A DNA stretch of 64,000 nucleotides from Acidilobus sp. GTDB taxonomy: Archaea; Thermoproteota; Thermoprotei_A; Sulfolobales; Acidilobaceae. Each line of letters opens with the position of its first letter. The stretch's first letter is position 1. Where the stretch lies: the NCBI GenBank assembly GCA_049977005.1, contig JBMFHE010000003.1, forward strand, positions 92,694 through 156,693, read 5' to 3'. The notes beneath the pieces were generated by a model that was not told the origin of the DNA, did no database searches, and worked only from the letters and a program-made list of their open reading frames with translations. A program made the translations under genes and the position numbers. Below are positions 34,648 through 39,864 of this stretch, in pieces.

Positions 34648-34708
34648 GTCCCCGGCACAATGTTGTCGTGGAACCCTTATTAACCCATGCAGGCAGGTAA
34701 CGGTGGGT

Positions 34709-34816
34709 AGCCGGGTCGTCTAGCGGCCCAGGATGCGGGGCTCTGGACGGGGCCGCTAGACAGCTGGCGCCGGGAGATCCCCCGTGACCGGGGTTCGAAT
34801 CCCCGCCCGGCTACCA
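34709..34816 (+). tRNA. tRNA-Gln(CTG) with a 32-nt intron at 37/38 (34747-34778), CCA encoded
   Basis: AGCCGGG/CCCGGCT acceptor stem, CGGGG/CCCCG anticodon stem, BHB (CTCT pairing GGAG, outer helix CGG/CCG), GTTCGAATC. Confidence 0.93.
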
Positions 34817-39758: not shown

Positions 39759-39864
39759 GGGGCCGTCGTCTAGCCTGGTAGGATGCCAGCCTGGGGAGCG
39801 GGCCCCCATGCCAGGCCGCCTGGATCGCTGGTGGTCCGGGGTTCAAATCCCCGCGGCCCCACCA
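39759..39864 (+). tRNA. tRNA-Pro(GGG) with a 29-nt intron at 37/38 (39797-39825), CCA encoded
   Basis: GGGGCCG/CGGCCCC acceptor stem, CCAGC/GCTGG anticodon stem, BHB with outer helix GCGG/CCGC, GTTCAAATC. Confidence 0.92.

Follow-up and report, generated by a model that had tools for sequence, protein, structure and literature searches.

The window analysed here, a 64,000-nt stretch of an Acidilobus contig (JBMFHE010000003.1, positions 92,694 to 156,693), carries a tRNA-Gln(CUG) gene that was missed by window-level ARAGORN and Rfam searches and was called by ARAGORN on the genome. Its features are collected in Table 1. The A/T box predicted as promoter occupies a comparable place in all 10 orthologous loci; a scan for bacterial promoters and terminators, which is not applicable here, returned nothing. 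ARAGORN reports the intron as i(39,32), an insertion one base 3′ of the anticodon, which is the place of a BHB 37/38 intron. The splice motif has a 4-bp central helix between two 3-nt bulges, formed by C32–U35 with GGAG (one G·U pair), and the partner strand reads GGAG or GGGG in 10/10 loci. The outer stem h′ that closes the intron comprises 3 bp here and 2–7 bp in the orthologues for which folds were printed; it is extended by an imperfect intron hairpin. The splicing endonuclease family PF01974 gave one match over the cut-off in the source assembly, which is 64% complete, and two in each of four near-complete relatives. A split tRNA with its halves on separate genes is ruled out, because the gene is contiguous in 10/10 loci. 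On every feature testable here, the insertion is a BHB 37/38 intron, and it shares with the canonical archaeal introns of this class (reviewed in PMC4090602) its position, 4-bp central helix, two 3-nt bulges, outer stem and short hairpin interior.

Table 1. Features of the tRNA-Gln(CUG) locus (window coordinates) and the candidate sRNA (genome and locus coordinates).
Feature	Position	Strand	Basis
Predicted TATA-like promoter box of tRNA-Gln(CUG)	34677-34683	+	sequence
tRNA-Gln(CUG) gene	34709-34816	+	ARAGORN on genome
5′ exon, positions 1-37; anticodon CTG at 34743-34745	34709-34746	+	ARAGORN on genome
D-arm target G10-C20b, including G15, G18 and G19; invariant part C12-C20a at 34720-34728	34718-34729	+	
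BHB central helix, 5′ strand, C32-U35; partner 34773-34776	34741-34744	+	sequence
32-nt intron after G37, canonical 37/38 position	34747-34778	+	ARAGORN on genome
BHB outer stem h′, 5′ strand; partner 34770-34772	34748-34750	+	constrained fold
12-nt antisense to D-arm; invariant 9-nt core 34751-34759	34750-34761	+	sequence and orthologues
Intron 3′ arm, can re-pair with core (masking strand)	34762-34768	+	folds
BHB central helix, 3′ strand, and 3′ bulge; 3′ splice site at 34778/34779	34773-34779	+	sequence
3′ exon, positions 38-76, CCA encoded	34779-34816	+	ARAGORN on genome
Candidate dual-guide box C/D sRNA, unannotated	G000:C2:96169-96219 (L516:270-320)		C, D′, C′ and D boxes

Unlike canonical BHB introns, this one contains a stretch complementary to the D-arm of its own tRNA, a property with no counterpart among the functions given in section 13 of the review (PMC4090602). 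The first-pass annotation had described a 12-nt exact reverse complement, and the sequence bears this out. The 12-mer is found three times in the 0.8-Mb assembly, namely in the D-arm of tRNA-Gln(CUG), in the identical D-arm of tRNA-Gln(UUG) and in the CUG intron. Dinucleotide shuffling of the intron produced a perfect complement of at least 12 nt to any part of the exon in 224 of 200,000 trials, i.e. about 0.1% per intron. For all seven distinct introns of the genus the own D-arm ranked first among 29–30 D-regions (shuffle p 0.003–0.013), and the complementarity is specific for the Gln D-arm. Within the 64%-complete assembly, the best complement of the core outside tRNA is 11 nt, and the longest non-tRNA complement of the whole intron, 13 nt, involves its variable 3′ arm. 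Ribosomal RNA was dropped as a target, because the complement never exceeded 7 nt in the 16S and 23S rRNAs of four congeners. Our literature search returned no account of a tRNA intron that is complementary to the D-arm of the same transcript; supplementary tables of archaeal introns and sRNA targets could bear on novelty.

To follow this element through the genus, we recovered the tRNA-Gln(CUG) locus from 10 of 12 genomes; in the remaining two, with a completeness of 61% and 72%, only the UUG gene was seen. The 10 loci represent seven distinct introns of 32–36 nt, and the 9-nt core that pairs with C12–C20a is invariant in all of them. Complementarity is kept in every orthologous intron, with 9–12 perfect pairs each. 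The flanks of the core, its offset (it starts 4–7 nt from the splice site) and its hairpin partner vary; the strand that re-pairs with the core inside the intron, the 3′ arm, differs between lineages and is variable in sequence, with a D-loop-like 3–5-mer in 10/10 loci. Across the same seven lineages, only 1 of 89 fourfold-degenerate sites in four neighbouring genes is invariant (pairwise identity about 50%, or about 30% for one genome), which argues that the core is actively maintained. The first-pass annotation had considered a trace of intron origin by inverted duplication; as no more than such a trace the element is unlikely to have persisted, because these silent sites are almost saturated.

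Conservation of the core could also reflect recognition of the intron hairpin by a protein or RNA, with the D-arm match as a legacy of its origin. The Pro, Tyr, Thr and Met introns of the genus likewise have conserved interiors, mostly without D-arm complementarity. However, the invariant bases match the complement of the central D-arm exactly, most changes at the edges preserve pairing and, besides the two Gln D-arms, the 64%-complete assembly holds no 12-nt complement of the core; we consider recognition of this kind very unlikely. At the edges, four of the five non-Watson–Crick cells at positions 10–11 are G·U. Position 20b pairs as C–G in five loci and as A–U in two near-identical loci, with a mismatch in 3/10. 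This apparently compensatory change counts as a single event and offers weak evidence; it tracks its own gene and not the UUG sister, since the sister retains C20b in the genomes with A–U. The core, which never varies, gives no covariation.

Alternatively, an inverted D-arm copy without any RNA function may have arisen once and been kept perfect by DNA template-switch repair of the quasi-palindrome, the 3′ arm merely limiting harm. Template-switch repair can keep quasi-palindrome copies perfect, and such an origin would agree with a core that is strictly Watson–Crick, with no wobble inside and frayed edges, with the further 5 bp to G2–G6 by which the helix is extendable in the source genome, and with the confinement of the module to one genus. 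The repeat should then extend, yet a U opposite A21 occurs in 0/10 loci and a G opposite C9 in 1/10, though these bases vary; moreover, the spacer varies by 3 nt, and the tRNA-Tyr analogue described below keeps U20·G in 11 of 34 rows. Maintenance by repair hence strikes us as quite unlikely. The same spacer variation led us to reject a fixed-spacing DNA-binding site.

Among the non-genus tRNA-Gln introns compared, no D-arm complement exceeds 8 nt, and the limit is 7 nt for a set of 76 loci fetched from the family, 21 of which bear introns; a wider spread of the antisense module in tRNA-Gln was rejected on these grounds. A metagenome scan returned eight loci (two already known variants) and no new intron variant. 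Left out of the counts were L051, L052 and L159, whose genes are identical with loci already counted; rows to which no 3′ exon was linked, for the most part orphan 5′ halves, were excluded from the orthologue complementarity count, and loci unparsed by the patterns from the intron-interior and Tyr counts. Nor is there a genus-wide rule of anti-D-arm introns: in the Gln(UUG), Tyr, Thr, Met and Lys introns the own D-arm did not rank first, and Pro(GGG) was marginal.

The tRNA-Pro(GGG) intron also lies in the window (39797-39825; core 39809-39816, D-loop 39773-39780), and its loop is nearly invariant in 12/12 genus genomes. It includes an 8-nt stretch, invariant in 12/12 genomes, that can pair with its own G15–A21 (8 bp, one G·U), and the five bases before this stretch can pair with U33–G37 in 11/12. 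The own D-arm ranks 2–6 of 29 (p 0.02–0.08), a marginal result, and the stretch resembles the Tyr motif. In the genus (L205-L227), a conserved motif of 9 nt is common to the elongator Met(CAU) and Thr(CGU) introns, and several genomes have variable-loop introns shared by Lys(CUU) and Lys(UUU); both cases suggest intron exchange between isotypes.

Which structures the precursor could adopt was modelled with ViennaRNA at 75°C. Free folding of the full precursors favoured the D-arm/core helix, with probabilities of 0.58–0.99 in 10/10. In growing transcripts, its pairing probability was 0.97–0.99 from 53 nt onward, i.e. as soon as the core is made. BHB-constrained folds of the 10 precursors lay 4–9 kcal/mol above the free folds. 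However, the median penalty for forming the BHB (5.7 kcal/mol, n = 7) is no larger than that of 67 control tRNA-Gln precursors (5.0 kcal/mol; three introns > 80 nt excluded), and folding energy was therefore rejected as proof of blocked splicing. A more telling measure is the opening of U13–A21, which costs 3.5–6.7 kcal/mol, as compared with a median of 1.9 and a maximum of 4.6 in 20 control rows, which were not de-duplicated; UUG precursors require 3.4–4.6, more than CUG in two of six genomes although they lack the module. All these values leave aside tertiary structure, modification and proteins. What the models predict is a precursor with two alternative folds and capture of the D-arm during transcription. 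The conformational switch controlling splicing that the first-pass annotation had put forward is the best reading, although the modelled penalty does not exceed that of controls. Its other suggestion, competition with the BHB outer stem, applies to a single base: the antisense does overlap h′, but only at 34750, and the main competitor is the internal hairpin 34752-34757/34762-34768, which uses the same core. The conflict between D-arm helix and BHB is probably topological; with each helix longer than one full turn and the two crossing within the acceptor stem, they would be mutually exclusive.

The intron might instead act after its excision, as a circle that binds in trans the D-arm of tRNA-Gln (CUG or UUG) or its halves and thereby competes with the G18 guide or affects ligation, charging or turnover. 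The free circle folds with -5 to -10 kcal/mol at 37°C and is unstable at 75°C; its weak hairpin masks part of the core, whereas the core/D-arm duplex reaches -22 to -28 kcal/mol. Excised tRNA intron circles have been detected in Sulfolobus (PMC3326292), and yeast free tRNA introns (fitRNAs) act on mRNA by complementarity (10.1101/2025.11.19.689297). On the other hand, a mature tRNA is already modified and folded, the pairing in cis is predicted to form first, and the sole compensatory change follows its own gene. In addition, m22G10 has been seen where G10 faces U25 (PMC7668247) and would weaken the outer pair. On balance, we think action in trans unlikely.

The loop addressed by the intron is also a modification target. 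In Sulfolobus acidocaldarius, tRNA-Gln(UUG) is methylated at G18 and U34 under C/D guides (PMC7668247), and for guides of this type the N+5 rule sets a distance of five bases from the target pair to the downstream D box (PMC6009581). In the Acidilobus genome we found a candidate dual-guide box C/D sRNA (Table 1), which lies between genes except for an antisense overlap of a few bases and gives a weak full-length match to Rfam sR14 (E 0.095; 15.8 bits, under the cut-off of 38 bits). Its D′ guide pairs with U13–A21 and puts G18 at N+5, while the D guide has U34 of tRNA-Gln(UUG) at N+5. The D′ half was seen in 11/12 genus and 7/7 sister-genus genomes; in Pyrobaculum, sRNAs with both guides aimed at a single tRNA are described as rare (PMC6009581). 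The intron core has the very sequence of the D′ guide. As the two have one sequence and one target loop, they would compete, and the intron duplex, reaching three pairs further, is the stronger in 6/6 genomes compared. The guide mismatches C20 in 4/11 genus genomes; an intron core was recovered from three of these and is intact there. In the sister genus the D′ guide occurs in 7/7 genomes, yet the introns are short and lack the antisense, which indicates that shielding is not generally needed.

Could the intron itself be a guide, box-less or degenerate, that directs D-loop modification via a C/D or H/ACA particle? It does share its core with the candidate D′ guide, its 9–12 bp in 10/10 loci fall within the 8–12-nt antisense of a C/D guide, and one intron (L002) has a C′-like heptamer downstream. 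As the first-pass annotation held, however, no C/D boxes are evident in the intron: we found no C box and no Rfam hit, and the C′-like motif is confined to one of seven distinct introns. The four bases where the D box for G18 would be needed differ among lineages, none of them CUGA-like, and the N+5 registers for G19 and G15 are no better. An archaeal H/ACA guide has a bipartite pocket around an unpaired U, an ACA box and a K-turn; here, the duplex is continuous and one-sided, the target is paired without a pocket, and ACA follows the core in 6/10 loci only. Since the motifs are not conserved, we rejected a reading of the intron as a K-loop, C/D or H/ACA element. With the boxes absent, a classical form of the guide element that the first-pass annotation envisaged is unsupported, and a box-less one seems highly improbable.

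Further observations concern the candidate sRNA and its relatives. Its D′ guide also fits tRNA-Ser D-loops. Six more C/D-like candidates (G000 C1:157534, C1:222433, C1:195484, C2:5057, C3:74548 and C8:11988) have guides that match tRNA-Glu(UUC), Lys(UUU), Val(UAC), Ala and Gly(CCC). A version of the hypothesis in which the intron frees the anticodon predicts a C34 guide for Gln(CUG); matches to such a guide were at control level in 12 genomes, with none convincing in the source assembly, and such a guide was rejected. U33 is near-universal in tRNA. In tRNA-Gln(UUG) (G000:C3:39158-39250, L180), the base is C33 in 12/12 genus and 7/7 sister-genus genomes, and C33 is also found in Arg(UCU), Leu(UAA), Leu(CAA) and Gly(CCC) of the source genome (G000 C1:45550, C4:25935, C4:58592 and C2:61036). 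Opposite position 33, the candidate U34 guide has A in 7/11 genus and 6/7 sister-genus genomes, G in three and one respectively, and U in one. In the A-type genomes this guide binds about 4 kcal/mol better if position 33 is U, which together with the guide A hints at C-to-U editing at 33. The relevant passage of PMC7668247 notes C33 for Sulfolobales tRNA-Cys only.

A comparable arrangement was found in tRNA-Tyr of other archaea. Among 102 distinct intron-bearing archaeal Tyr genes, 19 have a 9–12-nt perfect complement to their own D-arm, nearly all of them labelled Caldarchaeales, other Nitrososphaeria or Bathyarchaeia. An anti-D-loop 5-mer lies 3–13 nt from the intron 3′ end in 34 of 42 parsed rows; one of the 42, L473, has a different D-loop and does not belong in the denominator. 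Because this anchor, opposite C16–G19, is paired by construction, the informative column is position 20, which is free: U–A in 14 rows, U·G in 11, A–U in 8 and a mismatch in 1, with G15 paired in 34/34. The A–U change counts as one event, as all A–U rows are from Bathyarchaeia, and L422, seen but unparsed in the 5-mer count, has A20 opposite G, against covariation. The tolerance of G·U favours pairing at the RNA level over DNA repair. That an analogous motif occurs in tRNA-Tyr of two further archaeal classes suggests that introns have this function recurrently and not as a one-off. The Gln, Pro and Tyr cases have G15–G19 in common, the bases that lock the tRNA elbow. Elbow contacts of G18 and G19 are treated in PMC12168002.

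The tRNA-Tyr(GUA) introns (L369-L481, e.g. L441, L460, L469, L394 and L479) consist of a 5′ hairpin followed by an unpaired anti-D-loop stretch that adjoins the BHB helix strand, and in most rows a 4-mer complementary to G31–G34 precedes this stretch. As a separate observation, many Desulfurococcales, Sulfolobales and Acidilobaceae loci (L054, L061, L106, L148, L160, L166, L305, L325, L327, L334, L342, L344-L350, L358 and L359) have a 5′ half of tRNA-Gln with a GC-rich trailer behind it and no 3′ exon nearby, and are split-tRNA candidates. Six such trailers hold a 6–7-nt D-loop complement, possibly by composition.

Several known systems resemble the Gln intron in part. The archaeal pre-tRNA-Trp intron, a nested box C/D guide for Cm34 and Um39 (PMC4090602, section 13), likewise has a segment complementary to its own tRNA; it is 65–105 nt long and targets the anticodon arm, whereas the Gln intron has 32 nt, lacks C/C′/D/D′ boxes and targets the D-arm. 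The trans-acting sRNAs for Gm18 and Um34 of S. acidocaldarius tRNA-Gln(UUG) (PMC7668247; Rfam sR14) are aimed at the same loop. In contrast to these, the Gln intron is box-less, lies in cis and pairs three bases further into the D-stem, and for these reasons looks like a competitor of the guide and not a guide. In yeast, the tRNA-Tyr intron is needed for m1A58 (PMC12168002); there and in the fitRNAs a tRNA intron affects a distant modification or acts by complementarity, but through enzyme recognition of the precursor or pairing with mRNA rather than through a conserved helix with its own D-arm. The BHB intron itself is known; new here is the conserved candidate sRNA whose D′ guide matches the D-arm-antisense module.

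Collectively, we give about even chances to the explanation we prefer, that the intron is a cis clamp on the D-loop of its precursor, released by its own 3′ arm for splicing. In the proposed sequence of events, the core would capture C12–C20a while the precursor is being transcribed, and the captured D-loop would be closed to the candidate G18 guide particle, to archaeosine transglycosylase (the gene is present) and to elbow folding. The intron 3′ arm and the 3′ exon would subsequently displace the core, whereupon the BHB splice motif could form. The purpose may be to order D-loop and elbow events, such as G18 methylation, archaeosine at G15 and T-loop access, relative to splicing. A 34746-34779 joint was encountered in four metatranscriptomes, whose tRNAs were those of other organisms and lay on contigs with foreign flanks; it may stem from intronless genes of other organisms and was set aside.

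The clamp idea is testable in vitro via compensatory mutants. The precursor is short, GC-rich and fully synthesisable, with a predicted two-state fold and a named competitor in the candidate G18 guide sRNA, and tRNA-Gln(UUG), which has the same D-arm and an intron without the module, is a built-in control. It is still an open question for what reason tRNA introns are retained in archaea (PMC4090602, section 13). Tentatively, and as a proposal we hold to be possible but doubtful, archaeal tRNA introns may repeatedly have evolved a protein-free ‘anti-guide’ that clamps their own G15–G19 in competition with C/D particles and elbow folding, in Gln(CUG) and perhaps Pro(GGG) of Acidilobus and in Tyr(GUA) of Caldarchaeales and Bathyarchaeia, such that the intron would set the order of modification and splicing. 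If this were true, an anti-guide intron could make isoacceptors with identical bodies differ in G18 methylation.
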